From contig JBPCIX010000077.1 of NCBI GenBank assembly GCA_051005875.1, positions 9,537 to 73,536 of the forward strand: DNA of 64,000 nucleotides, read 5' to 3'. The notes below the pieces were generated by a model. The model had not been told where the DNA came from and ran no database searches. It saw only the letters and a program-made list of their open reading frames with translations. Shown here piece after piece: positions 8,215-54,705 of the stretch. The number at the start of each line of letters is the position of its first letter. The first letter of the stretch is position 1. Both the position numbers and the translations under genes were made by a program. The stretch is from Actinomycetota bacterium. GTDB lineage: Bacteria > Actinomycetota > CADDZG01 > JAHWKV01.

Positions 8215-9419
8215 CCGAGCCAAGCTCTGACTCGGGCCACCTTGCGGCTGCCGATAGTGCCGGCGGGCACGCCGGTAACGACACCCACGCTAACGACACC
8301 CACGCTAACGACACCCACGGCGTCGAGACCTTGGCGATAATCGGTACTGGACTTATGGGTGGTTCTTTGGGGCTTGCCAGCCTTAAGAAGGGACTGGCCA
8401 AGCATGTTAGAGGGTTCGATCTCGAAGCTGAGCGCACCGCCTCTGCGTTAGAAAGGGGCGCCATAACTTTCGCCGCCGGGTCAATCGAAGAGGCGGTCGA
8501 TAACGCTCAAATAGTGATCATCGCTACGCCGGTTGGCGCAATCACCGAAGCCTTTGAGCAGGTTGCGAAATTCGCTGGTCACGGCCTGATTGTGTCCGAC
8601 GTTGGCAGCACCAAGGCCACGATAGTCGGACAGATCAGCGACGCTGTGCCTTCCGGGATTCACTTTGTCGGCGGACACCCGATCGCCGGGTCTGAAAAAG
8701 ATGGCATTGATGCTGCGACGCCTGACTTGTACGCAGGCTGTTTGTGGGTGCTCACGCCTACCCCGGAAACCGACCCCGCAGCCTACCGAACATTGATGAA
8801 TTTCATAACGGGCCTGGGCGCCCGAGTGATCTCGCTGGACCCCACGCGCCACGACGAGGCTATGGCTCTCACCAGCCATTTACCGCAGCTGATTTCCAGC
8901 ACCCTGATGGGATTTGCGGCAGATGTATCGGCGTCTCCGGATGGTTTGCCTCTGCTGGCAGCCGGAGGGTTTCTAGACATGACCAGAATCTCGGGCAGCT
9001 CCCCGAATTTATGGTTGGACATAGTTCGAGACAACCGACTTGCCTTGCTCAATGTTCTGCGTAGGTTTCGGACTGCACTGGCCACCGCCGAGGAAGAACT
9101 GGCGGCCGAGGACTGGGGCCGCCTGGGCGAAATGCTTAACTCGGCGCGGGAAGCAAGAAGGTCGCTTTCTGCGAAACCCGGCGTTCAACCCGAGGAGCTG
9201 GTCGAAATTCGAATTCCCGTTCCCGATCGCGCCGGCGTTCTGGCCGAGGTTACCAACACTGTTGGCGAGGCAGGAATCAATATCGAAGATATCGACATTG
9301 TGCATTCTCCCGAGGGAGGCAGAGGAGTTGTCCACCTGTCGGTCGCCGGGCGCCCCAATGCCGATGAGGCCCTTCGGGCCATCGCTCAAAAAGGGTTCAG
9401 CCCCGAATTGATTCGTTAG
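8211..9419 (+). CDS. tyrA: Prephenate dehydrogenase with C-terminal ACT domain
   Basis: IIGTGLMGGSLGLA Rossmann motif, TyrA core and a C-terminal ACT domain. ATG overlaps the aroH stop (ATGA). The N-terminus carries an NDTHA x3 repeat. Confidence 0.9.
   Translation: MTEPSSDSGHLAAADSAGGHAGNDTHANDTHANDTHGVETLAIIGTGLMGGSLGLASLKKGLAKHVRGFDLEAERTASALERGAITFAAGSIEEAVDNAQIVIIATPVGAITEAFEQVAKFAGHGLIVSDVGSTKATIVGQISDAVPSGIHFVGGHPIAGSEKDGIDAATPDLYAGCLWVLTPTPETDPAAYRTLMNFITGLGARVISLDPTRHDEAMALTSHLPQLISSTLMGFAADVSASPDGLPLLAAGGFLDMTRISGSSPNLWLDIVRDNRLALLNVLRRFRTALATAEEELAAEDWGRLGEMLNSAREARRSLSAKPGVQPEELVEIRIPVPDRAGVLAEVTNTVGEAGINIEDIDIVHSPEGGRGVVHLSVAGRPNADEALRAIAQKGFSPELIR
8277..8321. repeat. 15-bp x3 tandem repeat (aacgacacccacgct) in the tyrA 5' coding region
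   Basis: Three copies encoding NDTHA-NDTHA-NDTHG in the tyrA frame. Confidence 0.9.
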
Positions 9420-10703
9420 GTGAATCAAACCTTCGAACCCCTGGCGAGAATAGACGGAAAGCTCCGGGTGCCTGGAGACAAATCTATTTCACACCGCGCG
9501 CTCATCGCGGCCGCTTTCACCAATGGACCCTGCCGGATCAGGGGCGCGGCGACAGGGGAGGATGTCGCCTCGACGAGAAGATGCCTGGGGGCTCTTGGAT
9601 TTGAAAGTTCGAACCACGCCGACAATGAGATCGTCGTGACCGGGAACGGATGGAACCTCAGCGCCGAGGCGGATCTCGACGCCGGCAATTCAGGCACGAC
9701 GATGCGATTGCTCGCCGGCGCCGTTGCCGGAAGTATGGGCAGGTATCGCATTGGCGGCGATCAGTCGCTGGTCCGCCGGCCGATGGCAAGAATTGCGGCC
9801 CCGCTGAGGCTAATGGGTGCCACGCTTAATTTGTCGAAAGGCGACGTTGCCCCAATCGAAATTCAGGGAGGGCAATTACGGGGGATTGAATACCACCTGC
9901 CCGTGCCAAGCGCGCAGGTAAAAGGAGCGATTCTACTGGCCGGCATTCAAGCAGAAGGAATAACCACGATTGTCGAGTCCCAACCTTGCCGGGATCACAC
10001 TGAAAGAATGCTCGCCTGGCTGGGCGCAGACATCGCTGTGGGCGACGGGCAGACAGTTTTGTCCGGTCCAGGAGCTTTGCCTAAGAATGACGGCTTTGAG
10101 ATTGCCGTCCCAGGCGACTTTTCTTCAGCCGCTTATTTCTTAACTGCCGCCTGCCTGGCGAAAAAGAGTCGAGTGGAAGTAACCGGTGTCGGTCTGAACC
10201 CGGGCCGCACTGGATTACTGGACATACTAAGAGCCATGGGCGCCAACGTAGTTGAAGTAATCGACGAGACCGACCCCGAGCCAAGGGGCCGGTCTTATGC
10301 TGATTCAGCCGAGCTGCGTTCGACGGAGATCGGGGGTGATCTGATCCCGCGAAGCATCGACGAGCTTCCACTGGCGGCCTTGGCGGCAACCCAGGCCACC
10401 GGCACAACAGTAATAAGGGATGCCGCAGAATTGCGCCTTAAGGAATCGGATCGAATCGGTGTTCTGGCAAAGGGCCTAAGGACCCTGGGGGCCTCGGTTG
10501 AGGATGTGCCGGATGGTCTAATCATCGAGGGGCCGACACCTCTCACCGGAGGGTCCGTGGATTCCCACGGCGATCACAGAATCGCCCTTACCTTTGCAGT
10601 TGCGGCGACGGTTGCCGCCGGGCCAATCTCTATTCGAGGCTGGGAATGCACGTCTATTTCTTATCCCGGTTTCGAACAAGACCTACGAAAGGTCGCCCTT
10701 TGA
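9420..10703 (+). CDS. aroA: 3-phosphoshikimate 1-carboxyvinyltransferase (EPSP synthase)
   Basis: LRVPGDKSISHRALIAAAF and the overall EPSP synthase fold motifs. Confidence 0.95.
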   Translation: MNQTFEPLARIDGKLRVPGDKSISHRALIAAAFTNGPCRIRGAATGEDVASTRRCLGALGFESSNHADNEIVVTGNGWNLSAEADLDAGNSGTTMRLLAGAVAGSMGRYRIGGDQSLVRRPMARIAAPLRLMGATLNLSKGDVAPIEIQGGQLRGIEYHLPVPSAQVKGAILLAGIQAEGITTIVESQPCRDHTERMLAWLGADIAVGDGQTVLSGPGALPKNDGFEIAVPGDFSSAAYFLTAACLAKKSRVEVTGVGLNPGRTGLLDILRAMGANVVEVIDETDPEPRGRSYADSAELRSTEIGGDLIPRSIDELPLAALAATQATGTTVIRDAAELRLKESDRIGVLAKGLRTLGASVEDVPDGLIIEGPTPLTGGSVDSHGDHRIALTFAVAATVAAGPISIRGWECTSISYPGFEQDLRKVAL

Positions 10704-10742
10704 GCGACGCCCTCCAAGGTCGCCCTTTGAGCGACGCCCTAG
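10689..10742. repeat. 27-bp x2 tandem duplication spanning the aroA stop / cmk start junction
   Basis: aaggtcgccctttgagcgacgccct(cc) at 10689 and again at 10716. Each copy contains cctTTGAgc, i.e. the overlapped TTG/TGA. Confidence 0.9.
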
Positions 10743-11389
10743 ATGGCCGCAAGCCAATTCTGATTGCGATAGATGGTCCGGCCGGTTCGGGCAAAAGCAC
10801 GGTATCCCAGGCACTTTCGCTGAGGCTCGGCCTGGACCATGTCGATACCGGAGCAATGTACCGGGCGCTGGCATGGAAGGCGCTCTCAATCAATGTTCCG
10901 ACCCGAGACTCGGTATTGATAGCGGCCCTGTTGAAGTCAACGACCGTTGATCTAAAGGGCGAAGAGGTGATTCTTGACGGAAGAGACGTTTCCAGTGTTA
11001 TTCGCTCGCCGCAGGCCGGTGCCGCCGCTTCTAAGATGGCCAGGAATGCAGAGGTGCGCCGATGGCTGGTTGAGCGCCAGCGCGAGATCGCTCGCCGGAA
11101 TCCCGCCGGCGCCGTGGTTGAAGGGCGCGACATCGGGACGGTCGTCTTGCCCGACGCCGACCTCAAGATTTTTCTTACCGCAGCTCTGGATGAGCGTGCG
11201 CGGCGCAAAAACGATCCATCGGGATCGGGGACCGCGTGGCAGCTCGAAGATCTTGCCAGCCGGGACCTAAGAGACACCCAACGAAGCGCGTCGCCACTTG
11301 TGGCCGCCGAGGATGCCGTTGTTTTGGACACCACTGACCTGTCTGCGGAAGAAACTGTCGAAAAAATCCTGGAGATGGTGAATAGTTGA
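10700..11389 (+). CDS. cmk: Cytidylate kinase
   Basis: IAIDGPAGSGKST P-loop followed by GAMYRALAW. Start is ambiguous: ATG at 10646, TTG at 10700 (TTGA overlap with the aroA stop) or TTG at 10727 in the duplicated junction. Confidence 0.88.
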   Translation: MSDALQGRPLSDALDGRKPILIAIDGPAGSGKSTVSQALSLRLGLDHVDTGAMYRALAWKALSINVPTRDSVLIAALLKSTTVDLKGEEVILDGRDVSSVIRSPQAGAAASKMARNAEVRRWLVERQREIARRNPAGAVVEGRDIGTVVLPDADLKIFLTAALDERARRKNDPSGSGTAWQLEDLASRDLRDTQRSASPLVAAEDAVVLDTTDLSAEETVEKILEMVNS

Positions 11390-12747
11390 AAGTAGCTCGC
11401 ACCTATCCGAAGGTTGTTGTCATCGGCCGCCCGAATGTAGGGAAATCAACGCTCGTCAATCGGTTGTCCGCCAGAAGGAACTCGTTGGTGGGCCCCGCGG
11501 CGGGCCTGACTCGCGACAGGGTTGAAACGGAAGTCGAATGGCGCGGCCGCAAGTTCATCATTTCTGATACAGGTGGGCTAATTGAAACCCCGCGGGAATC
11601 GGCGGACGCCCCTCAGACAATCACCGGCAAAGTCTCTCAGACGGCCCTCAAGTCGGTCGACAGCGCCGATGTGGTCGTGTTTGTGGTTGACGCCCACTCC
11701 GGCACGACTTCAGAGGACTTACTGCTTGCGAAGCGTTTGAGGGGAGTGGAGATACCGGTGATCGTCGCTGTAAACAAGGTGGACGGGCAGGCAGCAGAGG
11801 CCTCTTCTTCGGAATTTTGGAGCCTGGGGCTTGGTGAGCCGATAGGTGTCTCGGCCCTGCACGGACGAAGCTCCGGCGAGCTGCTGGACAGAATAGACGA
11901 GGCCCTGCCCAGGCTCGATCCGGAAGTGCCGGTTGCCGACATTCCCTCGATAGCGATAGTCGGCCGGCCCAACGTGGGCAAGTCATCTTTGTTCAATAGA
12001 ATAATCGGCGAGAATCGAGCGATTGTGCACGACGAGCCCGGCACCACCCGAGATTCGATCGACAGCATTGTCGAGCTTGGCGGCAAGCATTACCGGTTTG
12101 TCGATACCGCCGGTCTTAGCCGCCGCTCCAAGACCAAAGGGGTCGCCGCGTGGAGCGCGGGCCGGACTCGTGCGGCATTAGAGCGAGCCGATCTTGCCAT
12201 CATCGTTCTCGATGCCAGCGAGGGCGCTACCGCTCAGGACCAGAAAATAGCCAGAGACGTTTCGGAGGCAGGGGTGGGGGCACTACTGGTATTGAACAAA
12301 TGGGATCTACTTGAAGACCCCGACGAGTCAAAGTTGATCGAAGCCACGGCCGCTGAGCGCCTGAAGTTCGTAGATTTTGCCCCGACCTTTCGAATATCCG
12401 CCCTCACGAAAAGAGGCATCCAAAAAATTCTGGCGCAACTCGAACCGGTCCTCGAAGCAAGACAAGTGCGGGTGGGAACGGGGAGCCTCAATCAATTGAT
12501 TCAGCAGGCTCACCAAAAGGCTCCGCCACCGAGGGACCGCAACCGCGCCGTAAGGGTGCTGTATGCCACGCAGGCCTCGACTGCTCCGCCTACATTCGTC
12601 CTGTTTTCGACCGGACCCCTGCCGGCGGCATGGCTGCGCTTTCTCGAACGGAGACTAAGAGAAGAGTACGGATTTTTCGGCAACCCGATTCGTATCGTAG
12701 TCAGAGAGCGAGAAAGACAAACCCGGCAAGCTAGTGGGCAGCACTAG
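11386..12747 (+). CDS. der: Ribosome-biogenesis GTPase Der (EngA)
   Basis: Two tandem GTPase domains (GRPNVGKST x2) and a KH-like C-terminus. TTG start overlaps the cmk stop (TTGA). Confidence 0.95.
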   Translation: MKVARTYPKVVVIGRPNVGKSTLVNRLSARRNSLVGPAAGLTRDRVETEVEWRGRKFIISDTGGLIETPRESADAPQTITGKVSQTALKSVDSADVVVFVVDAHSGTTSEDLLLAKRLRGVEIPVIVAVNKVDGQAAEASSSEFWSLGLGEPIGVSALHGRSSGELLDRIDEALPRLDPEVPVADIPSIAIVGRPNVGKSSLFNRIIGENRAIVHDEPGTTRDSIDSIVELGGKHYRFVDTAGLSRRSKTKGVAAWSAGRTRAALERADLAIIVLDASEGATAQDQKIARDVSEAGVGALLVLNKWDLLEDPDESKLIEATAAERLKFVDFAPTFRISALTKRGIQKILAQLEPVLEARQVRVGTGSLNQLIQQAHQKAPPPRDRNRAVRVLYATQASTAPPTFVLFSTGPLPAAWLRFLERRLREEYGFFGNPIRIVVRERERQTRQASGQH

Positions 12748-12766
12748 GCGGTAGACTCATAGAAAG

Positions 12767-12840
12767 CGGGCCGTAGCGCAGTTTGGTAGCGCACTCGGCT
12801 GGGGGCCGAGTGGTCGCAGGTTCAAATCCTGTCGGCCCGA
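12767..12840 (+). tRNA. tRNA-Pro (anticodon GGG)
   Basis: Cloverleaf read by hand: acceptor CGGGCCG/CGGCCCG, D-arm GCGC/GCGC, anticodon stem CTCGG/CCGAG with loop CTGGGGG, T-arm GCAGG-TTCAAAT-CCTGT. No encoded CCA. Confidence 0.85.
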
Positions 12841-12914
12841 CTAAAAATTTTCACGTGGTAGAAACGCCCCCGCTGGTATCCGACATATAAAAGCCGGTGG
12901 TGTATACTGCATGC

Positions 12915-13151
12915 ATGCTGAGGAAGCAGATCTATATCGATGAGGATCTTGACTCTCGACTCAAATCGATGGCCGTTGCCGAAGGCCGCTCAGCGGCGGC
13001 GATCGTCCGGGACGCGGTGCGGGCATACCTGGCGCGCCCAGACGGCTCGGACAGTGATGATCCCTTCTTACGCCTTGCCGGGAGTATCCGCGGGGGGCGG
13101 TCGGATTCTTCGGTCGACCATGATCGCTACCTGTATCGAGACGCCCGGTAG
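12915..13151 (+). CDS. vapB: Ribbon-helix-helix antitoxin (VapB/CopG-like)
   Basis: Small protein (MLRKQIYIDEDLDSRLKSMAVAEGRSAAAIVRDAVRAY) with RHH fold residues, immediately upstream of the PIN gene. TATACT -10 box lies ~7 nt before the ATG, suggesting a leaderless transcript. Confidence 0.7.
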   Translation: MLRKQIYIDEDLDSRLKSMAVAEGRSAAAIVRDAVRAYLARPDGSDSDDPFLRLAGSIRGGRSDSSVDHDRYLYRDAR

Positions 13152-13153
13152 GC

Positions 13154-13579
13154 GTGGGCCTGGCCTTCGTAGACTCGGGTGGCTGGATCGCCTTGTTGAA
13201 AGGCAACGACAAATTTCATCCGGCCGCTGTGAATTACTATCAGGCCCAAGCGGGGCGCGGCACTCGCTTCTTGACCACCAACTACGTCGTAGACGAGACG
13301 GCCACCAGGCTCATCTACGATGCCGGGCTGGATGCTGCAATGTCCTTCCGCAAAGCGCTCAAACAGTCCGTGAAGGGCCGCCGATTACGCGTGCTGTGGG
13401 TCCAGCCGCGCCATGAGGAGATGGGCTGGGATCTGTTGAGCGCAAACCCTGAGGTCGAGCTTTCCCTGACCGACGCCATCAGCGCGGCCATGGCCCGGCA
13501 GACAGGAATCTCGGAAGTCTTCGGATTCGACACAGACTTTAAAGCACTGGGATTCGATCTGAGGCCCGACGCCCCTTAA
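13154..13579 (+). CDS. vapC: PIN-domain ribonuclease toxin (VapC-like)
   Basis: FVDSGGWIALL...D...E...D acidic residues typical of the PIN fold. 141 aa, 2 nt after vapB. Confidence 0.72.
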   Translation: MGLAFVDSGGWIALLKGNDKFHPAAVNYYQAQAGRGTRFLTTNYVVDETATRLIYDAGLDAAMSFRKALKQSVKGRRLRVLWVQPRHEEMGWDLLSANPEVELSLTDAISAAMARQTGISEVFGFDTDFKALGFDLRPDAP

Positions 13580-15971: not shown

Positions 15972-16967
15972 TTAGTTCCTAACGCTATGGCTTCCAATGG
16001 GGCCGCCGGTCGAAGAACTATTCGCGCCGGGCGGGTCGGGGCGAAGTCTACTTGACACGCCCTCAAGTAAGGAGCGCACCAACCGGCAAAACGAGGGCCA
16101 GTTGACGAATACGATGACCACCGTGGCAATCCAGGCCGTGTAGTCCAAATGCATCGTCAGCCATATGCCTACATGTAACGCCACGGCCCCCGGCACGAAC
16201 AACCAGGCGGCTCGCGGACGCCACAACACCAACGGAAAGCCAAGCTCGAACGCCAAAGTCATCGTTGCAAAGACTCTGGCCAGCCAAACCCTTCCGGCGA
16301 TGAACAGGGCAAGTGCGTTTGGTTCTGGCTGCGAATCGCTTGACGCGTAAAGGATCCAGCGCATGTTGTCGCCAAAAGCCCAGGCCGGGCCGGAATTTCG
16401 AACCTTAGCAAGGCCGGCAAAAAAGTAGGCCCCTGCGACCACGATCATTGCCGTTCGAATAGGCCAACCGTACTTGACGCTTGCTTGGGGCGAAAGCATT
16501 CCCCGGCCCCGCCGCCGGGCGTCGATCGACCATGCATCTGCGCATGGGGCCAGCAAAAGGGGCGCCACACACAGGAGCAGCATGACGTCGTTATGCATGA
16601 CCTTGCCAATGCTTGTGTGCATGCCGTTGAGAAAAACCGCCGACGTCCAGGCGGTGGGAACACTCAATCTGGTGAAAAGCCCGGCAGCGGCCATCAAGGC
16701 CGAACCCACCCCAAGAATCTGGACCACGATAACAACCGGGCGCTGAGGCATCGAGGAAAACATGTTCATGAACGACAAGGGCCTAAAGAGCGCCGGCGGC
16801 TGTCCCGCCAGCTCCAAGTACAAACGCCTGGAAAGCCGGGCGGCAAGCACCAGGAACAGGCCAATCCGAAGAGCCGCAAGCCTTTCGGCGGATTCAACCG
16901 AAAATATCCAGGAATGGATACCGGCGGCCTTCCTTTTGGCCCAGGTCACCCTTTTAGCCCAGGTCAC
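15972..16967 (-). CDS. HTTM-domain (vitamin K-dependent gamma-carboxylase-like) membrane protein
   Basis: About 330 aa polytopic protein with LAALRIGLFLVLA, W/H-rich loops and architecture typical of bacterial HTTM proteins. GTG start overlaps the upstream stop (GTGA). N-terminal VTWAKR x2 repeat. Confidence 0.65.
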   Translation of the reverse strand: MTWAKRVTWAKRKAAGIHSWIFSVESAERLAALRIGLFLVLAARLSRRLYLELAGQPPALFRPLSFMNMFSSMPQRPVVIVVQILGVGSALMAAAGLFTRLSVPTAWTSAVFLNGMHTSIGKVMHNDVMLLLCVAPLLLAPCADAWSIDARRRGRGMLSPQASVKYGWPIRTAMIVVAGAYFFAGLAKVRNSGPAWAFGDNMRWILYASSDSQPEPNALALFIAGRVWLARVFATMTLAFELGFPLVLWRPRAAWLFVPGAVALHVGIWLTMHLDYTAWIATVVIVFVNWPSFCRLVRSLLEGVSSRLRPDPPGANSSSTGGPIGSHSVRN

Positions 16968-22285: not shown

Positions 22286-22801
22286 ATGGCTGAGAGCACG
22301 ACTGAGAGCACGGCTGAGAACGGGTTCCGAGGACCGCAGGTTTGCAAGGTAGTGGGCATCAGCTACCGGCAGTTGGATTACTGGGCTCGCACGGGCCTGG
22401 TTACCCCCAGTGTGCAGCCGGCGCAAGGGTCGGGCAGCCAAAGACTGTATTCGTTCGAGGATCTGGTGGATCTGAAGTTAATAAATAAACTGCTCCAGGC
22501 AGGGGTCAGTTTGCAGCGGGTCCGCGAAGCCATTAGTTATCTGCATTCCCTGGGGCAAAACCTAAAGGGAATTACCATCGCCAGCGATGGCGTTTCAGTC
22601 TATGCATGCAAGTCGGCTGAAGAGGTTTACGATGTACTAAGGCGCGGACAAGGAGTATTCGGAATTGCAATTGATCCTGTGATGAAGGAACTCGAAGGTT
22701 CGGTTTCACAACTCAAGCTGAAGGCCGAACCTCAGACTGCCCCAGTCGGCGCCCCGGTAGCGCCTGAAAAGCTGGGCGGCAAAACAGAGGTGGGGGAGTA
22801 G
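22286..22801 (+). CDS. MerR-family transcriptional regulator (Rv1830-like)
   Basis: VCKVVGISYRQLDYWARTGLV HTH_MerR. ATG at 22286; the track start at 22211 lies in the promoter. N-terminal ESTT/ESTA repeat. Confidence 0.75.
   Translation: MAESTTESTAENGFRGPQVCKVVGISYRQLDYWARTGLVTPSVQPAQGSGSQRLYSFEDLVDLKLINKLLQAGVSLQRVREAISYLHSLGQNLKGITIASDGVSVYACKSAEEVYDVLRRGQGVFGIAIDPVMKELEGSVSQLKLKAEPQTAPVGAPVAPEKLGGKTEVGE
22289..22324. repeat. 12-bp x3 tandem repeat in the MerR 5' coding region
   Basis: gctgagagcacg / actgagagcacg / gctgagaacggg encoding AEST-TEST-AENG. Confidence 0.8.
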
Positions 22802-25744: not shown

Positions 25745-27261
25745 GATCCTCTACCTCGCCCGCGTCAGACGGCTCACCAAGGCGTTGCCCCGTTACCTTG
25801 TTCGATGTGTCGGTACCGGGGCGACGAGCTTCTACATTCCCCACTTTATCCGACCGGCTGAAAAAACCCCAGGATGCCTTGCCCGCGCACTTTCTGAGGC
25901 GCCAGGCCCCGCTCCTGCCCGAGGTTTCCGAACTTGATCTGGTGCGCCATTACACAAACCTTTCGAGAAAAAACTGGGGCATCGATGTTGGGTCTTATCC
26001 GCTTGGCTCTTGCACTATGAAGTACAACCCCAAAGTCCACGAGCAAATCGCTGCATTGTCAGGATTCCAAACACTCCATCCATGGCAACCCCAAAGTCAA
26101 ACGCAGGGGGCTATGGCCCTTTTGTATGAGATGGAACGCCACCTTGCCGAGCTGACCGGAATGGCGAGAGTAACTTTTCAACCGTCGGCCGGAGCAGCGG
26201 GGGAGTTAGCCGGACTCCTAATCATTAAGGCGCATCACTCGGCAAACGGGAGCAGGCGAGACACCATCGTGATTCCCGACTCGGCCCACGGAACCAATCC
26301 AGCGACGGTTAACCGCGCCGGTTACAAGGTTCGCCAAATCTCCTCAGGTCCAGACGGGCTCGTCGACCTGACGGCTCTTGAGAAGGCCCTCGATGACGAC
26401 GTGGCTGGATTCATGCTGACCAACCCAAACACGCTCGGCAGATTCGAAACGGAGATCGAGACCATTGCCAAATTGGTTCACGGCGCCGGGGGCCTGCTTT
26501 ACTACGACGGGGCCAACCTAAACGCCATCATGGGCGTTACCAGGCCGGGCGATATGGGCTTCGACGTAGTCCACATGAATCTTCACAAGACCATGACGAC
26601 TCCCCACGGTGGCGGGGGGCCGGGTTCGGGCCCGGTTGCCGTGTCCGCGGAGCTTGAACAGTATCTCCCGGCGCCCCTGGTTGGATTCAACGAAGATTCA
26701 GCCCAGTACTTTTGGGACACTGAGCGGCCGGATTCTATCGGCCGAGTCCACGGCTTCAACGGGAACTTTGCCGTCGTGCTGCGGGCTTACGCATACGTCT
26801 GCTCAATCGGTGGAGAAGGGCTGCGAAGGGTCTCTGAAAGGGCGGTTCTAAACGCCAACTATCTTCTCAAAGGCCTTCAGCCGCACTTTCCCCCGGGGAT
26901 TAAGGGGACGAAAGCGGGGGACTACCTGCACGAGTTTGTGGTTACTTCCAAGCGGTATCGAGCCAATGGGGTCCGAGCCATGGACATAGCCAAGAGGCTC
27001 ATTGACCTCGGATTTCATCCCCCAACCGTTTATTTCCCCCAAATAGTGGAGGAGGCAATGATGTTTGAGCCGACCGAAACGGAGTCCAAATCGACCCTCG
27101 ACAGCCTTGCGGGGGCCCTCACCCAAATAGCACGTGAAGCTGAGGAAACCCCCGAGGTGCTGAAACGATCACCGCAACTAGCCGCCACAGGACGCCTCGA
27201 CGAAGCGGGAGCGGCGAGACTGCCGAGGTTGCGCTGGTGGCCAGCGGGGGAGAGGTCTTAG
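25741..27261 (+). CDS. gcvPB: Glycine dehydrogenase (decarboxylating) subunit 2
   Basis: PLGSCTMKYNP and a PLP-lysine region (NLHKT). TTG start overlaps the gcvPA stop (TTGA). Confidence 0.93.
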   Translation: MRSSTSPASDGSPRRCPVTLFDVSVPGRRASTFPTLSDRLKKPQDALPAHFLRRQAPLLPEVSELDLVRHYTNLSRKNWGIDVGSYPLGSCTMKYNPKVHEQIAALSGFQTLHPWQPQSQTQGAMALLYEMERHLAELTGMARVTFQPSAGAAGELAGLLIIKAHHSANGSRRDTIVIPDSAHGTNPATVNRAGYKVRQISSGPDGLVDLTALEKALDDDVAGFMLTNPNTLGRFETEIETIAKLVHGAGGLLYYDGANLNAIMGVTRPGDMGFDVVHMNLHKTMTTPHGGGGPGSGPVAVSAELEQYLPAPLVGFNEDSAQYFWDTERPDSIGRVHGFNGNFAVVLRAYAYVCSIGGEGLRRVSERAVLNANYLLKGLQPHFPPGIKGTKAGDYLHEFVVTSKRYRANGVRAMDIAKRLIDLGFHPPTVYFPQIVEEAMMFEPTETESKSTLDSLAGALTQIAREAEETPEVLKRSPQLAATGRLDEAGAARLPRLRWWPAGERS

Positions 27262-27725
27262 GTGGGGGCCATACTCCCGGCCGAACGCCTTTCGAGCTCT
27301 AGAAGAAACTCTTTTTTATCCAGCCCGCCCGAATATCCGCCCAGTCCGTTTGAGGCAACAACACGGTGACAAGGAACAATGATCGGCACGTGGTTGGATG
27401 ACATAGTGTTCCCCACCGCCCGGGCCGCACCGGGGCTGCCGACTGCGGTCGCCACCTCGGCGTAGGTCCTAACCTCGCCTCGGGGGATGGTCCGTATGAA
27501 ATCGAGCACGGTCGTTTGAAAAGGTCCGGCGGAGGACGAGACCGGCAAGTTATTCAAGCCTTTGCCACCGGCGAAATAATCATCGAACGCCCGGCTTAGA
27601 GCGTGTCGCTGGGGAAGTTCGTTCCTAGATTTGCCTTCAAAGCGAATTCCGACGACTGCGCCAGATTCATTGATAGAAATGTCCAGCGGGCCAATGGGGG
27701 AGCGATAAAGAAAAGTGTCCAGCAT
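27258..27725 (-). CDS. ogt: Methylated-DNA--protein-cysteine methyltransferase
   Basis: PCHRVV active-site motif. Convergent 4-nt overlap with the gcvPB end. Confidence 0.9.
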   Translation of the reverse strand: MLDTFLYRSPIGPLDISINESGAVVGIRFEGKSRNELPQRHALSRAFDDYFAGGKGLNNLPVSSSAGPFQTTVLDFIRTIPRGEVRTYAEVATAVGSPGAARAVGNTMSSNHVPIIVPCHRVVASNGLGGYSGGLDKKEFLLELERRSAGSMAPT

Positions 27726-27766
27726 CTAGGGACAATCCTACGACAAATTCTTCAAGAAGCAACGCA

Positions 27767-28786
27767 TTATCTCGCCAGGGGATGGGCACGGGTGGCGGCT
27801 ACGAGTTCGGCGTCGGAAACCTCGGTATAAACCTGAATAGTGGCCAGATTGGCATGACCCAGAGCAGCCTGGAGCTGGCGAAGATTGTAGGCGGGCATAC
27901 CGGTGGCAGGATCAGGGCGAAGTCCAAGAGTCGCAAAGGTGTGCCTCAGCACGTGGACGCGGCTGCCTGGGCGCCGGGCGCCGGCCTGTCGAAGGATTCT
28001 GTCGATAACATATGCGACGCCCGACTTGGTAGCCTCGACGCTCATGCGAGGTTGACCCTGAGCGTCCATCCCGACCCTTCGAGCGCGGCTGGACACAAAG
28101 AGGGTTCGGGCCTGTAGCCCGAGACTTTCGAGGCGTTGGGCCCTTGTCGGCAAATACCTAGCCAGACAGTCTTGCGCGACCGGCGCCAGCGGAAGCCGCC
28201 TCTCCTTGTCGCCCTTCCCGATGACCGTTATGTACTCAGGGGGATTGCCCGCCAGCGAGTCCAGTTTCAAGGTCGCCATTTCTTCAAGCCGAAGTCCGGT
28301 CGTTAGAGCAAGCACAACCATCAAAAGATCCCGCTCCGGCCATCTGGAAGGCCCATTGGCGCTCATAACAAGGCGAGCGGAGTCGGCTTCGAGGGCCTTG
28401 GGCAACCTCTTCGTCTTCCGAGGGGACTTAAGAAGAGCCGCCGGATCGCGCGAGAGCCTGCCGGTTGCGTAGCACCATTTAAAAAAAACCTTGATGGCAG
28501 CGACCCGCCGGGCCACTCTTGCGGGACTGCGTTCGTTGGGGGCCTGATCCGGATTCAAAGTGTATCGAGGGTCAGGGCCGACCCGGAAATCAGCGATCGA
28601 AGCAACCAGCAAGTCTCTTGTGACTGATTCGAGGTCAAAATCTTGAGGATCGACGCCCTTTTGCGCTGCCGTAAATTTCAAGGTAGTAAGGACCTCGGCC
28701 TCGTAAGCGTGAACAGTCCTGGGGGACCGGCCTTCATTGCCAAGCTCCATAAGCCAGATATTCATAGCCTCAAAAGCAGAACTCAT
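27767..28786 (-). CDS. Tyrosine-type site-specific recombinase (Xer/phage-integrase family)
   Basis: N-terminal SAM-like domain (TVHAYEAEVLTTLKF) and catalytic R...HVLRHTFAT...GHANLATIQVYTEV (R-H-R-Y). Ends like XerC/D, without an IntI extra domain. Confidence 0.85.
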   Translation of the reverse strand: MSSAFEAMNIWLMELGNEGRSPRTVHAYEAEVLTTLKFTAAQKGVDPQDFDLESVTRDLLVASIADFRVGPDPRYTLNPDQAPNERSPARVARRVAAIKVFFKWCYATGRLSRDPAALLKSPRKTKRLPKALEADSARLVMSANGPSRWPERDLLMVVLALTTGLRLEEMATLKLDSLAGNPPEYITVIGKGDKERRLPLAPVAQDCLARYLPTRAQRLESLGLQARTLFVSSRARRVGMDAQGQPRMSVEATKSGVAYVIDRILRQAGARRPGSRVHVLRHTFATLGLRPDPATGMPAYNLRQLQAALGHANLATIQVYTEVSDAELVAATRAHPLAR

Positions 28787-28795
28787 TCGTGCGAA

Positions 28796-28827
28796 TAACT
28801 CATAACTAAAGAATACTTTAGTTAGTA
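28796..28827. repeat. Left copy of directly repeated dif-like recombination core site
   Basis: aactcATAACTAAA-GAATAC-TTTAGTTAGtag has a 9-bp arm, 6-bp spacer, 9-bp inverted arm. It lies about 10 bp upstream of the recombinase start codon. Confidence 0.5.
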
Positions 28828-28882
28828 GTGATTTAGATTCTGAAGTCCTCCGAATCCTTCAGAACTATCTTCGAGTTGCGCA

Positions 28883-29069
28883 TTGGTTAAGTTCTCTTTC
28901 TCGCGGCAAGTCTCCACAAGAGCCCGGCAGCAGCAACGTTCACGACCCCCAGGACCAATCCGTAAATCCGCTGCAGATCGTGATAATCGCGGGTCAGCGC
29001 CCAAAACAATAAGACAAATCCACCCAGGAGAGTCATTCCGGCCAGTACCAATCGAGCGGGTCTGTACAT
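28883..29069 (-). CDS. Small two-TM membrane protein (hypothetical)
   Basis: MYRPARLVLAGMTLLGGFVLLFWAL...GLVLGVVNVAAAGLLW: two hydrophobic helices in 62 aa, immediately downstream of the secreted-protein gene. Confidence 0.4.
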
Positions 29070-29092
29070 CTCTCTCTCCGCCAGATTCGGAA

Positions 29093-30313
29093 CTAAATGC
29101 CGCCGCTGACCCACTGGGAGTCAATATCGAGAACCTTACCGCGGGTATCATGGTAGAGGTCAACTATGTCAGTTGGCCCACCGGCCGACCAGTCATCCAC
29201 GAGGATGTAGTACCAGCGATTATCGTTCGGTACCACGAAAGATCGTCGGTCCTTCGCCGGATCCCACCCGCTGCCGTTCCTCGGCTTAAGCCAAAGGTCG
29301 TAGACACAGTTGCTCGAATTGTAGCTGCTCGGACACCGGTGCATCCCCTCGTATTGAAAGCCAGTGGCACTTCCCGTCGTGAGTCGCGTGTAGCCCTGTT
29401 CTTCGTAAGCCACAGAGTTTGCCACGTACATGGACGTGTAAGCCCAGTTTGGGGAGGGACCTGTCGGGTGTACGCGAAGGTAACAGGCTCCTGCCCCCCC
29501 TGCCCCGCCGGAACAGAGCCACTCCTGGCTGGCCGCACCTGTGTACCAACCCGCTGTCCCGGTCTCAAAGTTAGCGTTATAGACAGTCCATGGCGCATAC
29601 ATGCCGGTCGACTTGTGCGTGCCATACTGAGGATTGAGATCTGGGAACCCCTTGGAGCCATGTTCTGCAGGCACGTAGTTCAACTGCCCATTCGAAAATG
29701 AAGTGGATGGATGTTCACCACCTCCCTGTTGTACGTTGAAGTAAGGACGCTGACTGGGCATGAAGGGCCCTGCACAATTCCACCAGGCTGAGTAGAGCTT
29801 GTTGGGGTTGGCTCGCTGGTCCGCCGCAACTACATCCATGTCTGCAACAAAAAGGACCGCATCATCGTTTGCCTCAGTGAAATCCACATAGGTCGAGACT
29901 GCAGCCGGGAATCCTGCGGTGCCGTTGAAAGGACCGCTACCAAAGAATGAAAAGAGCGTTCGGTTGCAGTCCGCACCCCCGGTTCTTTTCCAACCGACCT
30001 CCAAGGATTCCGCGTTTGATTGACTTTTGTTTTCCCAAGCCGTCAGCGAGTCGGGCATGACATCCAGCTTCCATTGGAAAAAGTAGGCGACGTTGCCCCA
30101 CGACTCGTAGCCCATTTGGGACTCAACATAAGTAGGTGCCCACAAACTGGGACGAGTCCAATAAGGATCATTCACGTTGATGGCACCCGCCGGACTCAGT
30201 GGGGCAAGTACGGCCAGGGTTCCAGTACATATGATTAAGGCCACGAGACGTAACGAGGACGCCCGACGACCAAGAGACGAGGACTTCCGATTAATGCAAG
30301 TCGGTGACGTCAA
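29093..30313 (-). CDS. Secreted hypothetical protein (Sec signal peptide; W/Y/N/G-rich)
   Basis: Signal peptide RRASSLRLVALIICTGTLAVLAPLSPAGA, then an aromatic- and glycine-rich 370-aa domain with no recognisable family. Confidence 0.6.
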   Translation of the reverse strand: MTSPTCINRKSSSLGRRASSLRLVALIICTGTLAVLAPLSPAGAINVNDPYWTRPSLWAPTYVESQMGYESWGNVAYFFQWKLDVMPDSLTAWENKSQSNAESLEVGWKRTGGADCNRTLFSFFGSGPFNGTAGFPAAVSTYVDFTEANDDAVLFVADMDVVAADQRANPNKLYSAWWNCAGPFMPSQRPYFNVQQGGGEHPSTSFSNGQLNYVPAEHGSKGFPDLNPQYGTHKSTGMYAPWTVYNANFETGTAGWYTGAASQEWLCSGGAGGAGACYLRVHPTGPSPNWAYTSMYVANSVAYEEQGYTRLTTGSATGFQYEGMHRCPSSYNSSNCVYDLWLKPRNGSGWDPAKDRRSFVVPNDNRWYYILVDDWSAGGPTDIVDLYHDTRGKVLDIDSQWVSGGI

Positions 30314-32036: not shown

Positions 32037-32770
32037 CGGCGGCCCTTGTTCTTGAGGCGATCCCTGATGCCCCACCTTGTAATCGAAGTGATCGCTTCGA
32101 CCACTACGGCCTTTGACATCTTAGATTCTCCCGCCGTTCTCTCTCGAAATACTATGGGCACCTCTTTAATGCTATGGCCTAGCAGCCAGGTTTTGTAGGT
32201 CATTTCGATTTGAAATGCATAACCTTGCGACTGAACCCGGTCGAGTCCGATCGCTTTTAGCACCTCCGCTCGGTAGCATCGGAATCCACTGGTGGAATCT
32301 TGAACTTTGTAACCCAGCATCCGCCTCGCGTATAGATTCCCCGCTTGCGAAAGCAGATGGCGCCCCTTGGACCATCCCACGACCCGGCCCCCAGAAATAT
32401 AACGAGACCCGATTACCAATCCACAAGTGTGCGCCCCTTCGATCAGTTCGGGCAACGAAGCCGGGTCATGCGACAGGTCGGCATCCATCTCGATGAAGTG
32501 GGTGAATCCCCTCTCGAGTCCCCAGCCAAAACCATCCACATAGGCTTTTCCGAGGCCTCCCTTGACCTCGCGAGCCAGCAGATTAATCCTTGAACCCGTC
32601 ATTCGTCGCTGAGCGATTTCCAGCGTCCCATCGGTGGAACCGTCGTCGACCACGAGCACGGAAACGTTAGTCGCAATTCCCATCACAGCGTCGAGGAGAG
32701 AATCTAAATGCGCGGCCTCGTCGTAAGTTGGAATAACGACCAGGACGCGGCCCCCCGGCGCGTCGCTCAA
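32033..32770 (-). CDS. ppm1: Polyprenol-monophosphomannose synthase (GT2, Ppm1/DPM1-like)
   Basis: VVIPTYDEAAHL...VVDDGSTDGT...MDADLSHDP GT2 motifs with Ppm1-like length. Confidence 0.85.
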   Translation of the reverse strand: MSDAPGGRVLVVIPTYDEAAHLDSLLDAVMGIATNVSVLVVDDGSTDGTLEIAQRRMTGSRINLLAREVKGGLGKAYVDGFGWGLERGFTHFIEMDADLSHDPASLPELIEGAHTCGLVIGSRYISGGRVVGWSKGRHLLSQAGNLYARRMLGYKVQDSTSGFRCYRAEVLKAIGLDRVQSQGYAFQIEMTYKTWLLGHSIKEVPIVFRERTAGESKMSKAVVVEAITSITRWGIRDRLKNKGRR

Positions 32771-38721: not shown

Positions 38722-39090
38722 TCAAGGCTCTTTCCCGGGCGGGTACTCCCGGATGTCCGGATCCGCCATCTGGGGATCCTGTTGGTTTACTGCGACGTCC
38801 GCGGGCTCCGTGGCGCCCAGCTTTGTGGTCACGGACTCGCTTTCAATAGGCAATGCTTTTGTTTCAGGCACAGGCCAAGGGTGGAACGCTGGATCATCGG
38901 CCGCTGAATCGTGAAAAGCAGGGTCATCCAGGCCCGCCTTGAGATCTTCAGTAAGGTCCCCCGTAACCTTTTTAAACTCCCTTAGCGCCTTGCCGGCCTG
39001 CCGTGCCATATCCGGTAGCCGGCGGGGACCGAAGACCAGTAGCGCGACTACGGCAATAACCATCATTTCAGGAAAACCAATATTGCCCAT
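38722..39090 (-). CDS. tatA: Twin-arginine translocase subunit TatA/TatB
   Basis: MGNIGFPEMMVIAVVALLVFGPRRLPDMARQAGKALREFK is the canonical TatA N-terminus. The acidic tail carries a DDPAFH x2 repeat. Confidence 0.85.
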   Translation of the reverse strand: MGNIGFPEMMVIAVVALLVFGPRRLPDMARQAGKALREFKKVTGDLTEDLKAGLDDPAFHDSAADDPAFHPWPVPETKALPIESESVTTKLGATEPADVAVNQQDPQMADPDIREYPPGKEP

Positions 39091-42150: not shown

Positions 42151-42195
42151 CCCGATCTTCATTCGCCCGATCTTCATTCGCCCGATCTTCATTCG
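42151..42195. repeat. 15-bp x3 tandem repeat (cccgatcttcattcg) between pafA stop and DUF3866 start
   Basis: Three perfect copies. On the coding (minus) strand each unit reads CGAATGAAGATCGGG and carries a TGA in frame with pafA. Confidence 0.9.
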
Positions 42196-42200: not shown

Positions 42201-43553
42201 TCACAACGCTGAAATCAATCTTGCGACCCGCTCGTCGGTGTGCTTAAACGGATCCTTACAAAGAACCGTCCTTTGGGCCTGGTCATTCAATTTCAAGTGG
42301 ACCCAGTCAACGGTGAAATCTCGGCGTCTCTTCTTAGCCGCCCTGATGAACTCACCCCGCAATTTAGCCCGGGTGGTTTGCGGCGGGTTCAGCTTTGCCT
42401 CATCGATCTCCTGGTCGGTCACGTAGCGCTCGGCAAGGCCATTTCTCTCGAGTAAGTAATAAAGACTTCGGCGCCGTGACACATCATGGTAAGCAAGGTC
42501 CATCAGCGCGAGCTTAGGATGACCGAGCCCAATTTCATGCCTTGCCTGGAAGGCTTCCAGCAACTTGTACTTCATTACCCAATCGATCTTCGAATCAAGC
42601 TGCATAAAGTCATCCTCCAAAGCGACAAGGCACCCCTCCCAATCCTTAACTATTTGCTTCATTTCCGGATCGTCTCGACGATCAACGTACTTAGCTGCAC
42701 GGCTAAGGTACTCCCATTGCAACTCGATGGCCGAAGTCTCGCGGCCATTGGCGAGGCGCACTTTACGGCGGCAGGTTATATCGTGCGAAATCTCTCGTAT
42801 GGCCTTGATGGGATTCTCGAGGGTTAAGTCACGCATCACCACTCCTTCTTCAAGCATTCGAAGGAGCACCGACGTGGTGGCGACCTTGATCCAGCCGGAA
42901 TATTCGCTCATGTTCGAGTCACCGACGATGACATGAAGCCGGCGAAATTTCTCAGCATCTGCATGTGGCTCATCTCTGGTGTTAATAATTGGCCTGGAAC
43001 GGGTGGTGGCTGAAGAAACTCCTTCCCAGATATGTTCTGCCCTCTGGGAAATGCAGTACAGGGCGCCCCTGGCGGTCTGTAGAACTTTGCCCGCTCCGGA
43101 AAAGATTTGCCTGGAAACAAAAAACGGGATCATGACTTCGGCAAGTTTGCCGAACTCGCCGTAGCGGCTTACCAGGTAGTTCTCGTGACATCCGTAAGAG
43201 TTGCCCGCTGAGTCAGTATTGTTCTTAAAGAGGTAAACCTGCCCGGAAATACCTTCTTCCCTAAGGCGCATTTCAGCCGCGTTGACGAGCGATTCGAGTA
43301 TGCGCTCCCCCGCTTTATCATGGACAATAAGCTCACGAATGTCGTCACATTCGGGAGTTGCATATTCTGGATGCGATCCTACGTCGAGATAAAGCCTGGC
43401 CCCATTTTCCAGAAAGACATTAGACGATCGCCCCCACGACACAACCCGGCGGAACAGGTAACGGGCAACTTCATCGGGCGATAAACGACGCTGTCCGCGA
43501 AAAGTACAGGTAACCCCATATTCATTTTCCAGCCCGTAAATTCGTCTTTCCAA
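42201..43553 (-). CDS. pafA: Pup--protein ligase
   Basis: [17 protein letters not shown]-terminus and carboxylate-amine ligase fold motifs; paralogous to dop at 45413. Confidence 0.95.
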
Positions 43554-47034: not shown

Positions 47035-48321
47035 ATGTCATTAATGCCCCCTCCGGTAAGAAACGTGCCGGCGCCAAAGCACCGCCCCGACCGGCCTTCC
47101 AGGTTAAGGCCTTCCAGGTTAAGGCCACCCAGGTTAAGGCCAGGCGGAGTGGGACGAGGCCCCGGGAAGCACTCTTACCGCCCGCCTGCCAAGCGGCCCG
47201 GCCATGGGCGCTGGTGGCTCAGCCGCGCTAGACATTTTCTCGGCCGTCTGGATCTTGAAAGGGCTAGACGATCCTTCGCCCGGGCAAACGAAGGGCCTGC
47301 TTGGATTCGAATAGCTCGTGTGGCCATCGTCACTTCCGTTCCTGTTGGGTTGGCCGCGTTGCCCACGGCGACTTATGACCCTAAACCTCCAACGACAGTT
47401 TCAGTTTCCGGGAAGTTGGTTTTGCTGCCGCCTCAAGTAACGCTGTCATCGGCCTTCAAGCAATTGGGTGGCGGCCCGCAACCAGGCCGAATCATGAGCG
47501 TGCTCGGAAACCCCCTGGGTCCGGCCGACACATCGCCGATCGTAAGGCTGAACGGCAACCCAACATTGCCTTCAATTCAACTTCGAAACGGTGACCGCCT
47601 GGAATTCCAAAATGGCGCAGATAAACCAGAGCCGGCCGTTCAGGAAACCTATGCGCAAGCAGAAGGAAATCCTCAGTTCTTAATCGGCAGCGGGAGTGTG
47701 ACTGTGCTGAGAGGCACCTTGTCGGGTCAAATCCAAACGCTCGCATCCACCCCGGGGACCGGCGCCCCCCAGGTGGCATTGACCTTCGATGATGGTCCAA
47801 GCCCCCTGTACACGCCTGCGATCCTAGACATCTTGCGAAATGCTGGAGTAAAGGCGACTTTCTTTCCATTGGGAAGAACGGCTTCGCGAAACCCAGACCT
47901 TGTTCGGCGCCTAGTCGCCGAAGGCATGCACATCGGCAATCACAGCTGGGACCATCCCGTACTGACCAACAAGCCGGCCAAATTCGTAATCGATCAGCTA
48001 AAAAGGTCCGAAGATACGCTCAGCGCGCTCGGGGCTTCGGTAAGTGTTTTTCGACCCCCCTTCGGTAGCTTTCAGCCTTCCACCCTCAAAACCGCGGAAT
48101 CCCTCCACCTGAAGACGGTGATTTGGAGCGTGGACTCACTCGATTGGAAAAAGACCGGAACGGAGCAAATCGTTGACCGCGTTCTTTCATTGGTGCGACC
48201 GGGTTCGATAATTCTCCTTCACGACGGTGGCGGAAACAGAAGTCAGACAGTAGCTGCCCTCCCACAAATAATCTCAACCCTTAAAGCGCGCGGCTACCAA
48301 TTCGCCCTCTTGGGAGGCTAA
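47035..48321 (+). CDS. Polysaccharide deacetylase (CE4/NodB-homology) with N-terminal membrane anchor
   Basis: LTFDDGP, HSWDHP and LLHDGG NodB motifs; TM helix (VAIVTSVPVGLAAL). The basic N-terminal tail carries an RPSRL x3 repeat. Confidence 0.8.
   Translation: MSLMPPPVRNVPAPKHRPDRPSRLRPSRLRPPRLRPGGVGRGPGKHSYRPPAKRPGHGRWWLSRARHFLGRLDLERARRSFARANEGPAWIRIARVAIVTSVPVGLAALPTATYDPKPPTTVSVSGKLVLLPPQVTLSSAFKQLGGGPQPGRIMSVLGNPLGPADTSPIVRLNGNPTLPSIQLRNGDRLEFQNGADKPEPAVQETYAQAEGNPQFLIGSGSVTVLRGTLSGQIQTLASTPGTGAPQVALTFDDGPSPLYTPAILDILRNAGVKATFFPLGRTASRNPDLVRRLVAEGMHIGNHSWDHPVLTNKPAKFVIDQLKRSEDTLSALGASVSVFRPPFGSFQPSTLKTAESLHLKTVIWSVDSLDWKKTGTEQIVDRVLSLVRPGSIILLHDGGGNRSQTVAALPQIISTLKARGYQFALLGG
47095..47139. 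repeat. 15-bp x3 tandem repeat (ccttccaggttaagg) in the deacetylase 5' coding region
   Basis: Three copies (the third is ccacccaggttaagg) encoding RPSRL-RPSRL-RPPRL. Confidence 0.85.
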
Positions 48322-48353
48322 AGCTTGGGAGGCTAAAGCTTGGGACGCTAAAA
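48309..48353. repeat. 15-bp x3 tandem repeat (cttgggaggctaaag) spanning the deacetylase stop codon
   Basis: Copy 1 contains the TAA stop; copies 2 and 3 add in-frame TAAs at 48334 and 48349. Confidence 0.85.
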
Positions 48354-52640: not shown

Positions 52641-52670
52641 CCGAACCTAAACACTCCGAACCTAAACACA
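52641..52670. repeat. 15-bp x2 tandem repeat (ccgaacctaaacact) downstream of the glnA stop
   Basis: Two copies, each with a TAA in frame with glnA (52648, 52663). Confidence 0.8.
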
Positions 52671-52678
52671 CTGGTGGG

Positions 52679-54361: not shown

Positions 54362-54588
54362 AACGCACCAAGCCTAGCCGGAGTTTCTTGGACCTGAGCC
54401 CTCTTCACTGTGTTTGCTCATTGGTGACCGCTCACCATCGCAAGCTTTTGCGGTGCCACTGGAGGTCATCGATGAGGCGGTAAACCTGATTGAAACCGGC
54501 GCAATCACGAATCATGAGTACGACCTAGACTGGCCGGCGGTCACGGCGAGCTGGCACCTCTATAATCGACCATTGCCTCAAGCATTCG

Positions 54589-54674
54589 GTCGGAGTGGCG
54601 GAACTTGGTAGACGCGCTAGGTTGAGGGCCTAGTGGGCGCATAGCCCATAGGGGTTCAAATCCCCTCTCCGACA
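54589..54674 (+). tRNA. tRNA-Leu (anticodon GAG)
   Basis: Acceptor GTCGGAG/CTCCGAC, anticodon stem CTAGG/CCTAG with loop TTGAGGG, long variable arm, T-arm AGGGG-TTCAAAT-CCCCT. Confidence 0.85.
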
Positions 54675-54705
54675 CTCTCCCCTCTCCGACACTCCCCTCT
54701 CCGAC
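54662..54705. repeat. Triplication of the tRNA-Leu 3' end (cccctctccgac) in tandem
   Basis: cccctctccgac occurs at 54662 (inside the tRNA), 54679 and 54694, with periods of 17 and 15 bp. Confidence 0.85.

Follow-up and report, generated by a model that had tools for sequence, protein, structure and literature searches.

Short tandem arrays occur at 11 loci in a 64-kb stretch of contig JBPCIX010000077.1 (hereafter the window), which belongs to a metagenome-assembled genome (MAG) of an uncultured member of the Actinomycetota and has a G+C content of 57%. The arrays, which were detected with Tandem Repeats Finder (TRF) and an exact-run scan, consist of head-to-tail copies that are 80–100% identical. 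We consider it probable (roughly 60%) that they are neutral local tandem duplications of one lineage that were filtered by selection and then expanded by slippage. According to this model, a mutational process that favors steps of ~15 bp would duplicate short stretches at many places, and purifying selection would remove the duplications wherever 15–30 added bases cause harm. The survivors would be found in spacers of low function, especially convergent ones, and, if in frame, in disordered N-terminal tails. Others would span stop codons, stop/start overlaps or the 3' end of a tRNA, because there the gene end is preserved by the first copy. Once two copies are present, slipped-strand mispairing between the 14–15-nt copies would add a third. 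Neutrality, the selective filter and the expansion from two copies to three are the parts of the model that we infer.

The arrays are far more frequent than expected. Under a fixed criterion of at least 93% matches and a period of at least 10 bp, the window holds 10 such arrays, and a phylum control of 80 Actinomycetota Mpa loci (1.46 Mb in total) returned 56, which corresponds to a density of 10 per 64 kb in the window versus 2.5 per 64 kb in the controls (Poisson p = 2.7e-4). Dinucleotide and triplet shuffles of the window contained no exact two-copy repeats with periods of at least 10 bp. The shuffles, the phylum controls and the comparison with sister species described below together rule out a chance origin. 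Short duplications are not in excess at every size, since periods of 4–11 bp match the shuffles and the sisters.

The sister species are represented by contigs from JGI sample 3300015209, in which Mpa is 95% and 85% identical to the window protein, AroA is 71% identical and the DNA is 70–79% identical in the main aligned blocks. The closest genomes in a species-level collection had 77–81% Mpa identity. The window Mpa itself is 100% identical to an NCBI MAG protein, and exact look-ups of that protein and of PafA matched no indexed contig. A metagenome scan anchored on Der returned only relatives with at most 46% identity, and the left half of the window was covered via AroA homologues instead. 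At every comparable site (the CE4 deacetylase stop, the CE4 deacetylase N-terminus, the MerR-family gene, the aroA/cmk junction, the hypothetical gene/HTTM junction, TyrA and tRNA-Leu) the sisters have one copy or none, and ~61 kb of orthologous sister-species DNA contained no 15-bp arrays and a single near-perfect array at any period. The near-perfect copies are 94–100% identical while the window and the sisters differ at about one quarter of their bases (22–26%), and thus the arrays are either young or kept homogeneous. The duplications are lineage-specific and recent, and the proposal of a first-pass annotation of the window that they are peculiar to a lineage is borne out by the aligned sister loci. 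The only repeats found in the orthologous sister DNA are a 12-bp array of 7.3 copies (98%) at 20739–20826 of contig L083, in the gene after tatA, and two copies of a 21-bp unit in the Mpa N-terminus (49–90) that are common to contigs L081 and L082.

Dense perfect arrays are sporadic in other Actinomycetota MAGs, and one locus of the phylum, L038 from Acidimicrobiaceae MAG MFD09495, is richer than the window in short arrays. This locus has 8 near-perfect arrays in 21.7 kb (3048–13449) with up to 5.8 copies. Their periods are 10, 14, 15, 18, 18, 22, 23 and 27 bp, without one preferred period, and several adjoin stop codons.

As the source is a MAG, one concern, which the first-pass annotation had itself raised, is that sequencing, amplification or assembly created the arrays artificially. 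Moreover, assembly tools often use k-mers or minimizers of size 15, and all of the read-level evidence comes from one sequencing run, SRR33880242. Independent contigs for this run were available from Logan, which uses a k=31 de Bruijn assembler, and three of them are identical to the window (100%) over 4514, 2942 and 3440 bp (10.9 kb). Contig L164 carries the 27-bp array at 10689 intact and contig L169 carries the 15-bp array at 52641 intact, both with 100% identity. Contig L167 stops after exactly two units of the array at 42151 (at 42180), which is the break to be expected because a k=31 graph must branch if the reads contain three or more perfect copies. The start of L164 at window position 8300, inside the array at 8276, is a point in favor of an artefact, as it is not predicted by the k=31 branch points of alleles with one, two or four copies; it may reflect low coverage or a nearby variant. 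On the other side, the arrays differ in age, with identities from 80% to 100%, and all of the coding arrays are in frame and disrupt no domain, whereas an artefact would not respect the reading frame. In addition, each of seven window proteins that were looked up is listed under two NCBI accessions. The three Logan contigs largely reject an artefact of the MAG assembler, and it is very improbable that any artefact accounts for the arrays.

The most regular feature of the arrays is their step, which is 15 bp at 8 of the 11 loci. The other loci have steps of 12, 18 and 27 bp, and the tRNA-Leu locus, one of the eight, mixes steps of 17 and 15 bp. No exact or near-exact two-copy repeats were found in the window at periods of 8–11, 13, 14, 16 or 19–26 bp, and periods of 4–9 bp show no excess over the sister contigs. 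Only 10 of the 56 control arrays have a 15-bp period, and at that rate the probability of at least 6 in 10, the count in the window, is 0.0035. The first-pass annotation had pointed out that all units are multiples of three, even the intergenic ones, and took this as a sign of selection for frame. The regularity is instead a sharp 15-bp mode and does not reflect a general multiple-of-three rule: the non-coding events, which have no frame to keep, measure 15, 15, 15, 15, 15, 15 and 17 bp, the last of these at tRNA-Leu, and the coding arrays have steps of 12, 18 and 27 bp because they needed to be in frame to survive. Keyword searches of the literature turned up no relevant account of 15-bp duplications in bacteria.

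The arrays are also restricted in position. On a hand-curated gene map of the window, they fall at 4 of 7 convergent junctions and 5 of 50 co-directional ones, and at none of the 7 divergent junctions (Fisher p = 0.0056), and the remaining two, at 8276 (TyrA) and 47093 (CE4 deacetylase), lie in N-terminal tails with no junction. A 3' end is touched by 7 of the 11 arrays: the real stop codon is part of the array in four cases, the array starts 5–9 nt past a stop in two, and in one it includes a tRNA end. Four arrays are at the other end of a gene, in its start region or no further in than codon 36. None of the arrays lies inside a conserved domain. Arrays in the control Actinomycetota have a similar placement, in that 5 of 11 intergenic arrays are at most 21 nt from a stop codon (1–21 nt after it). 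When a unit contains a stop codon or a tRNA end, the first copy keeps the product unchanged, and when a unit with a period divisible by three includes a 4-nt stop/start overlap, either copy can serve as the start of the downstream gene. The arrays appear to occupy places where an extra 15–30 bp is harmless, and a selective filter on where arrays persist, which the first-pass annotation had also suggested, is the best reading of their positions.

The individual loci illustrate these placements. The identities of TyrA, AroA, Cmk, MerR, PafA, the CE4 deacetylase and GlnA are backed by Pfam and agree with the names given in the first-pass annotation, whose placements of repeats at stops, starts and the tRNA end are likewise correct. 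Known RNAs were sought with ARAGORN and Rfam; Rfam matched the two tRNAs and no other known RNA element, with no hits at the arrays themselves. Terminator-like sites at the arrays are not above the shuffle level, and a single weak hairpin lies beside the array at 48309.

At convergent junctions, the CE4 stop array (48309–48352, plus strand, 15 bp × 2.9 by TRF) has a first unit that ends the CE4 gene (TAA at 48319–48321) and two more units in the convergent spacer that separates this gene from the Mpa stop, so that TAA is present three times. In sister contigs L081 and L082 the unit is single and the spacer measures 5–16 nt, compared with 61 nt in the window. Alignment with the sisters indicates that the gene-proximal copy is ancestral and that the distal copy is the most diverged. 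The glnA–nadE array (52641–52669, plus strand, 15 bp × 1.93, perfect, X14-T-X14 by TRF and the exact-run scan) lies in a convergent spacer of 46 nt, begins 9 nt past the glnA stop and supplies two in-frame TAAs. At tRNA-Leu(GAG), the last 14 nt of the gene are present three times (54661–54705, plus strand; ARAGORN, Rfam) with a step of 17 and then 15 bp, in the order copy 1 (the gene end), CTC, copy 2, C, copy 3, extending into a convergent spacer. The repeat is absent from this locus in the sister.

The fourth convergent array is one of two older 15-bp arrays that were missing from the first-pass list. It is decayed (3925–3956, assigned to neither strand, 15 bp × 2.1, 88% matches; TRF, Pfam) and lies in the convergent spacer between dksA and an M50-like open reading frame (ORF). 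Its proximal unit contains the TAG stop (3941–3943) of this minus-strand ORF (3941–4576), and its distal unit contains a second in-frame TAG. The array lies at the left edge of a 760-bp segment (3911–4669) between dksA and a class-Ib tRNA synthetase gene that holds the minus-strand M50-peptidase-like ORF. This segment is absent from both sister contigs, where the spacer is ~30 nt, and no direct repeats were seen flanking it. The 15-mer CCTAGGCCGCTCCAG, or a variant of it with one or two mismatches, is found at four places in the window (3925/3940, 31411 and 56355 [minus strand]). Two of the four sites are the C-terminal ends of minus-strand genes, and a 14/15 match is unlikely by chance; the sites follow no evident pattern.

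Among the co-directional junctions, the pafA–DUF3866 spacer has a perfect array of three 15-bp units (42151–42195, minus strand, 15 bp × 3.0; TRF, exact-run scan) that begins 5 nt past the pafA stop (42201–42203). Every unit includes an ATGA that places a TGA in the pafA frame, so that three in-frame TGAs lie downstream of the stop. The aroA/cmk array (10689–10740, plus strand, 27 bp × 1.93, perfect, X25-CC-X25; TRF, exact-run scan) covers the overlap of the aroA stop and the cmk start, with TTGA at positions 10700 and 10727. Each TTG is in the cmk frame; the NCBI annotation starts cmk at the second and Logan at the first. The sisters have one TTGA at this junction. Similarly, the hypothetical gene/HTTM-like array (16932–16967, minus strand, 18 bp × 2.0, 94%, one mismatch by TRF) covers a stop/start overlap, duplicating GTGA and giving VTWAKR twice at the HTTM N-terminus, where sister contig L165 has a single ATGA.

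The second of the older arrays (62868–62911, minus strand, 14/15 bp × 3, 80%; TRF, Pfam) triplicates the start region of gap, which encodes GAPDH, and its upstream copies form a 12-codon upstream ORF (uORF; MGVKEMGLKEWA). The ATG of the uORF at 62909 lies behind a GGAGG at 62921, and the uORF runs to 62873 and so overlaps the gap ATG at 62880. The only Shine-Dalgarno-like GGAGG at gap now precedes the upstream copy, and the stop of the uORF overlaps gap codons 2–3. Judging from this arrangement, translation of gap may depend on termination-reinitiation.

Three arrays lengthen N-termini. The TyrA array (8276–8319, plus strand, 15 bp × 2.93, perfect, 44 nt, X14-C-X14-C-X14; TRF, exact-run scan) corresponds to codons 22–36 and encodes NDTHA three times, a unit that is absent from the sister TyrA proteins. 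The CE4 deacetylase array (47093–47141, plus strand, 15 bp × 3.3; TRF, exact-run scan) encodes RPSRL, RPSRL and RPPRL in the N-terminal tail, where the sisters have one QPSRL and exactly 10 codons fewer. The MerR-family array (22290–22319, plus strand, 12 bp × 2.5 by TRF) lies directly 3' of the ATG at 22286 and reads M-AEST-TEST-AENG. The N-terminus of the window protein is MAESTTESTAENG versus MAENG in the sister proteins, and relative to the sister DNA (ATGGCTGAGAACGGG) the window has a 24-nt insertion. The inserted units carry bases (GC) that are not in the single-copy state, and this array is more complex than a simple duplication.

The units of the different arrays are mutually unrelated, as the first-pass annotation had concluded in describing them as local duplications. 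The best circular identity between units is 0.78 versus a random maximum of 0.73, and none of the units occurs elsewhere in the window, which rules out a dispersed repeat family. A search of the window for non-tandem, spaced local copies found none apart from the arrays. One repeat on the first-pass list was not confirmed as a tandem repeat. The two DDPAFH copies in TatA (38722–39090) are separated by four residues (DSAA) and share no exact DNA run of at least 12 nt; this pair is an old or coincidental repeat that lies outside the tandem-array set. A richness of C over G in the units on the plus strand (~8 of 10 units in a count by eye) was not significant.

Six of the arrays add in-frame stops downstream of a gene, which raises the possibility that the arrays are kept for a function. 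Backup stops could guard against leaky termination, and duplicated overlaps could preserve or tune translational coupling. The 4-nt overlap is kept in the first copy at both operon-junction arrays, and the decayed gap array makes a uORF that overlaps the gap start codon, as might be expected of such a function. When a unit holds the real stop and its period is a multiple of three, however, extra in-frame stops are automatic, which covers four of the cases, and each of the pafA and glnA arrays, which follow the stop, had a 1-in-3 chance of being in frame. Among 57 genes that are free of arrays, 29 are followed by an in-frame stop within 15 codons versus 20 of 57 in each other frame, which is not a significant excess (p = 0.13). 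Since stop usage is also ordinary (TGA 26, TAA 20, TAG 17), stop-codon reassignment and leaky termination were rejected. Moreover, similar arrays are found in N-terminal tails and at the tRNA end, places to which stops do not matter, one of the steps is 17 bp, and the sister species manage without any of the arrays. A function of this kind is therefore highly doubtful. The extra in-frame stops and the duplicated TTGA and GTGA junctions reported in the first-pass annotation are present in the sequence, but its suggestion that backup stops were selected is not supported. The stops, the duplicated junctions and the repeated peptides are probably by-products that have no function. Tandem (backup) stops in the usual sense resemble the situation here in that six genes have in-frame stops a few codons past the real stop. 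They differ in that the stops here come from a duplicated block with a stop triplet, with no significant excess outside of the arrays.

Although the perfect 15-bp copies would be good substrates for slippage, and copy number differs between the window species and its sisters, it is improbable that the arrays are hypervariable variable-number tandem repeat (VNTR) or contingency loci, in which frequent copy-number changes modulate expression or protein tails. The k=31 graph at 42151 permits any copy number, but no second allele of the array-bearing proteins was found in a collection of 15 billion proteins, where TyrA and HTTM are each the sole member of their cluster and the MerR cluster is made up of sister-species forms only. 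The genes are housekeeping genes, with none encoding surface or phase-variable products, and copy number is just 2–3.

What was the event that produced the first duplication at each locus? Replication slippage, an origin suggested in the first-pass annotation, is disfavored because most of the arrays lack flanking microhomology. Flanking microhomology is absent in 8 of 10 arrays, and the remainder beyond whole units is zero or negative in 8 of 10. The array at 47093 is the only one with clear flanking homology (GGCC) and the only one that extends beyond whole units by priming microhomology (+4 nt), while that at 22290 (+6) misfits a simple duplication. In addition, one or two junction bases match neither flank at 8276, 10689, 52641 and the 15-bp step at 54677. 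Consistent with such fillers, lengths that are one or two bases short of whole units (n × p − 1 or n × p − 2) occur in 5 of 10 window arrays versus 9 of 56 controls (p = 0.013). The value becomes p = 0.06 without the array at 48309, which can be set aside because divergence of its distal copy, as seen in the sister alignment, explains its length. The structure at 8276 (X14-C-X14-C-X14) is the expected product of one slippage from an X14-n-X14 state like that at 52641.

The missing microhomology and the junction bases weigh against the model of neutral, filtered duplication, as do several other points. A sharp 15-bp mode is not predicted by a generic error process. The enrichment at convergent junctions could mark where lesions arise and not where duplications are tolerated. 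Read-level support is limited to the one sequencing run, and we infer neutrality with a single sample of the species available. As for the first event itself, one that is independent of homology, such as fill-in and end joining at a staggered break, is tentatively and slightly preferred, and microhomology-primed slippage is a somewhat less likely starting point.

A more specific alternative is that the arrays are repair scars of staggered breaks, in which 5' overhangs of ~14–18 nt (once 25), left by an enzyme or by nicks lying close together on opposite strands, were filled in and joined without homology by a Ku/LigD pathway of the Actinobacteria type. A variant of this idea is that a transposase- or integrase-like enzyme makes cuts with a fixed 15-bp stagger, as casposases do, and that the arrays are the footprints of target-site duplications. 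Either process would give X-X or X-n-X, at times with 1–2 untemplated bases. The sharp 15-bp mode without a continuum of shorter duplications, the absence of flanking microhomology, the X14-n-X14 structure at three loci and the X25-nn-X25 structure at one, and the excess of lengths just short of whole units all fit such scars, as does the tRNA-Leu end, which appears to have been struck twice with different junctions (17 bp and 15 bp). The polymerase domain of LigD has gap-filling and terminal-transferase activities (PMC8656161). A precedent is the A. boonei casposase, which makes a 15-bp target-site duplication beside a tRNA 3' end and off-target insertions with 15-, 16- and 22-bp duplications (PMC5137440). 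Excision of the M. mazei casposon leaves one clean site and no lasting duplication (PMC10359463), which speaks against scars of this sort, and footprints of casposon-type excision were rejected on this ground. Transposase, Cas1, Ku and LigD genes were not seen among the window ORFs in Pfam scans or in the sister synteny, which show ordinary core genes, and the only recombinase is a phage-type integrase located 14–26 kb from the nearest arrays. Furthermore, the filler statistic weakens without 48309, three-copy arrays require an additional step, and the MerR array misfits a simple X-n-X. We know of no source of 15-nt 5' overhangs in bacteria. On balance, repair scars of staggered breaks are an unlikely explanation for the arrays. 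Less likely still is the broader proposition that the lineage has, or had until recently, a homology-free mutational process with a fixed step of 14–15 bp whose scars favor the 3' ends of genes and tRNAs. Such a process could start with casposase-like cuts, staggered by 15 nt at the 5' ends and made by a nuclease or integrase, and go on to fill-in and joining of the Ku/LigD type, which would leave scars that resemble target-site duplications, sometimes with 1–2 untemplated bases.

If neutral duplication followed by filtering is the right explanation, the window offers a clean natural case of selection sieving one class of mutation, and shows that backup stops in frame and duplications of coupling junctions need no function in order to appear. 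The 15-bp step, the lack of microhomology and the occasional filler, in one lineage and not its sisters, point to a specific repair or cutting activity, and of all the features of the arrays only this homology-free 15-bp signature might open a new direction. The arrays would also be good strain markers for this uncultured actinobacterium.

Two other regions of the window deserve mention. A Pro/Ser-rich, low-complexity membrane protein (31404–32075) contains (SP)n arrays at 31826–31904 with 6-, 12- and 18-bp periodicity, which are a different kind of repeat from the 15-bp arrays. The phage-type integrase gene (27767–28786, minus strand) adjoins ogt and two ORFs without a Pfam match (29093–31176). 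In this region (27258–31176, ~28–32 kb) gene orientation turns from plus to minus and the cumulative GC skew turns over, and the region could be an integrated element or the replication terminus region.

How do the arrays compare with known systems? The mycobacterial interspersed repetitive unit (MIRU)-VNTRs, to which the first-pass annotation likened them, insert at start codons and have an internal ORF coupled at −4 nt (PMC12548453). The likeness is one of position only, as MIRUs occur at operon junctions with 4-nt stop/start overlaps. Here, overlaps of this kind are duplicated at aroA/cmk and at hypothetical gene/HTTM, and at gap the array gives rise to a coupled uORF that overlaps a start codon. 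It fails for the repeats themselves. MIRUs are a dispersed family of related, apparently mobile 40–100-bp units, whereas the units here are 12–27 bp, unrelated and locally copied. In addition, 8 of the 11 arrays have no duplicated overlap or uORF, and most are not at operon junctions.

Among staggered-cut integrases, the casposase is the only enzyme found with a 14–18-nt stagger geometry. Its target-site duplications resemble most of the arrays in their 15-bp length, with occasional lengths of 16–22 bp, and in their site at a tRNA 3' end (PMC5137440). They differ in that no element lies between the copies in the window, no casposase or transposase gene is found there, the targets are unrelated in sequence and three-copy arrays are unexpected. 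A duplicated att site at tRNA-Leu was also considered; the copies there are adjacent (3 nt and 1 nt apart) with no element between them, and they do not bracket the only integrase gene in the window.

Duplications of the slipped-strand type, including the rad27 type that is associated with flap-endonuclease deficiency in yeast, are bounded by direct repeats of 3–12 bp and have a broad range of lengths. The arrays are similar to them as short, replication-associated tandem duplications of tens of bases that can then grow by slippage, and differ in that 8 of 10 lack microhomology and their lengths cluster at 15 bp. With bacterial VNTRs or minisatellites the arrays share near-identical head-to-tail units (here of 12–27 bp in 2–3 copies), a location within spacers and at gene termini and a copy number that varies between related genomes, and other Actinomycetota loci hold similar arrays. 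The arrays of the window stand apart from these in that most lack flanking microhomology, their density is ~4 times the phylum background and far above that of the sisters, and their period is dominated by 15 bp.

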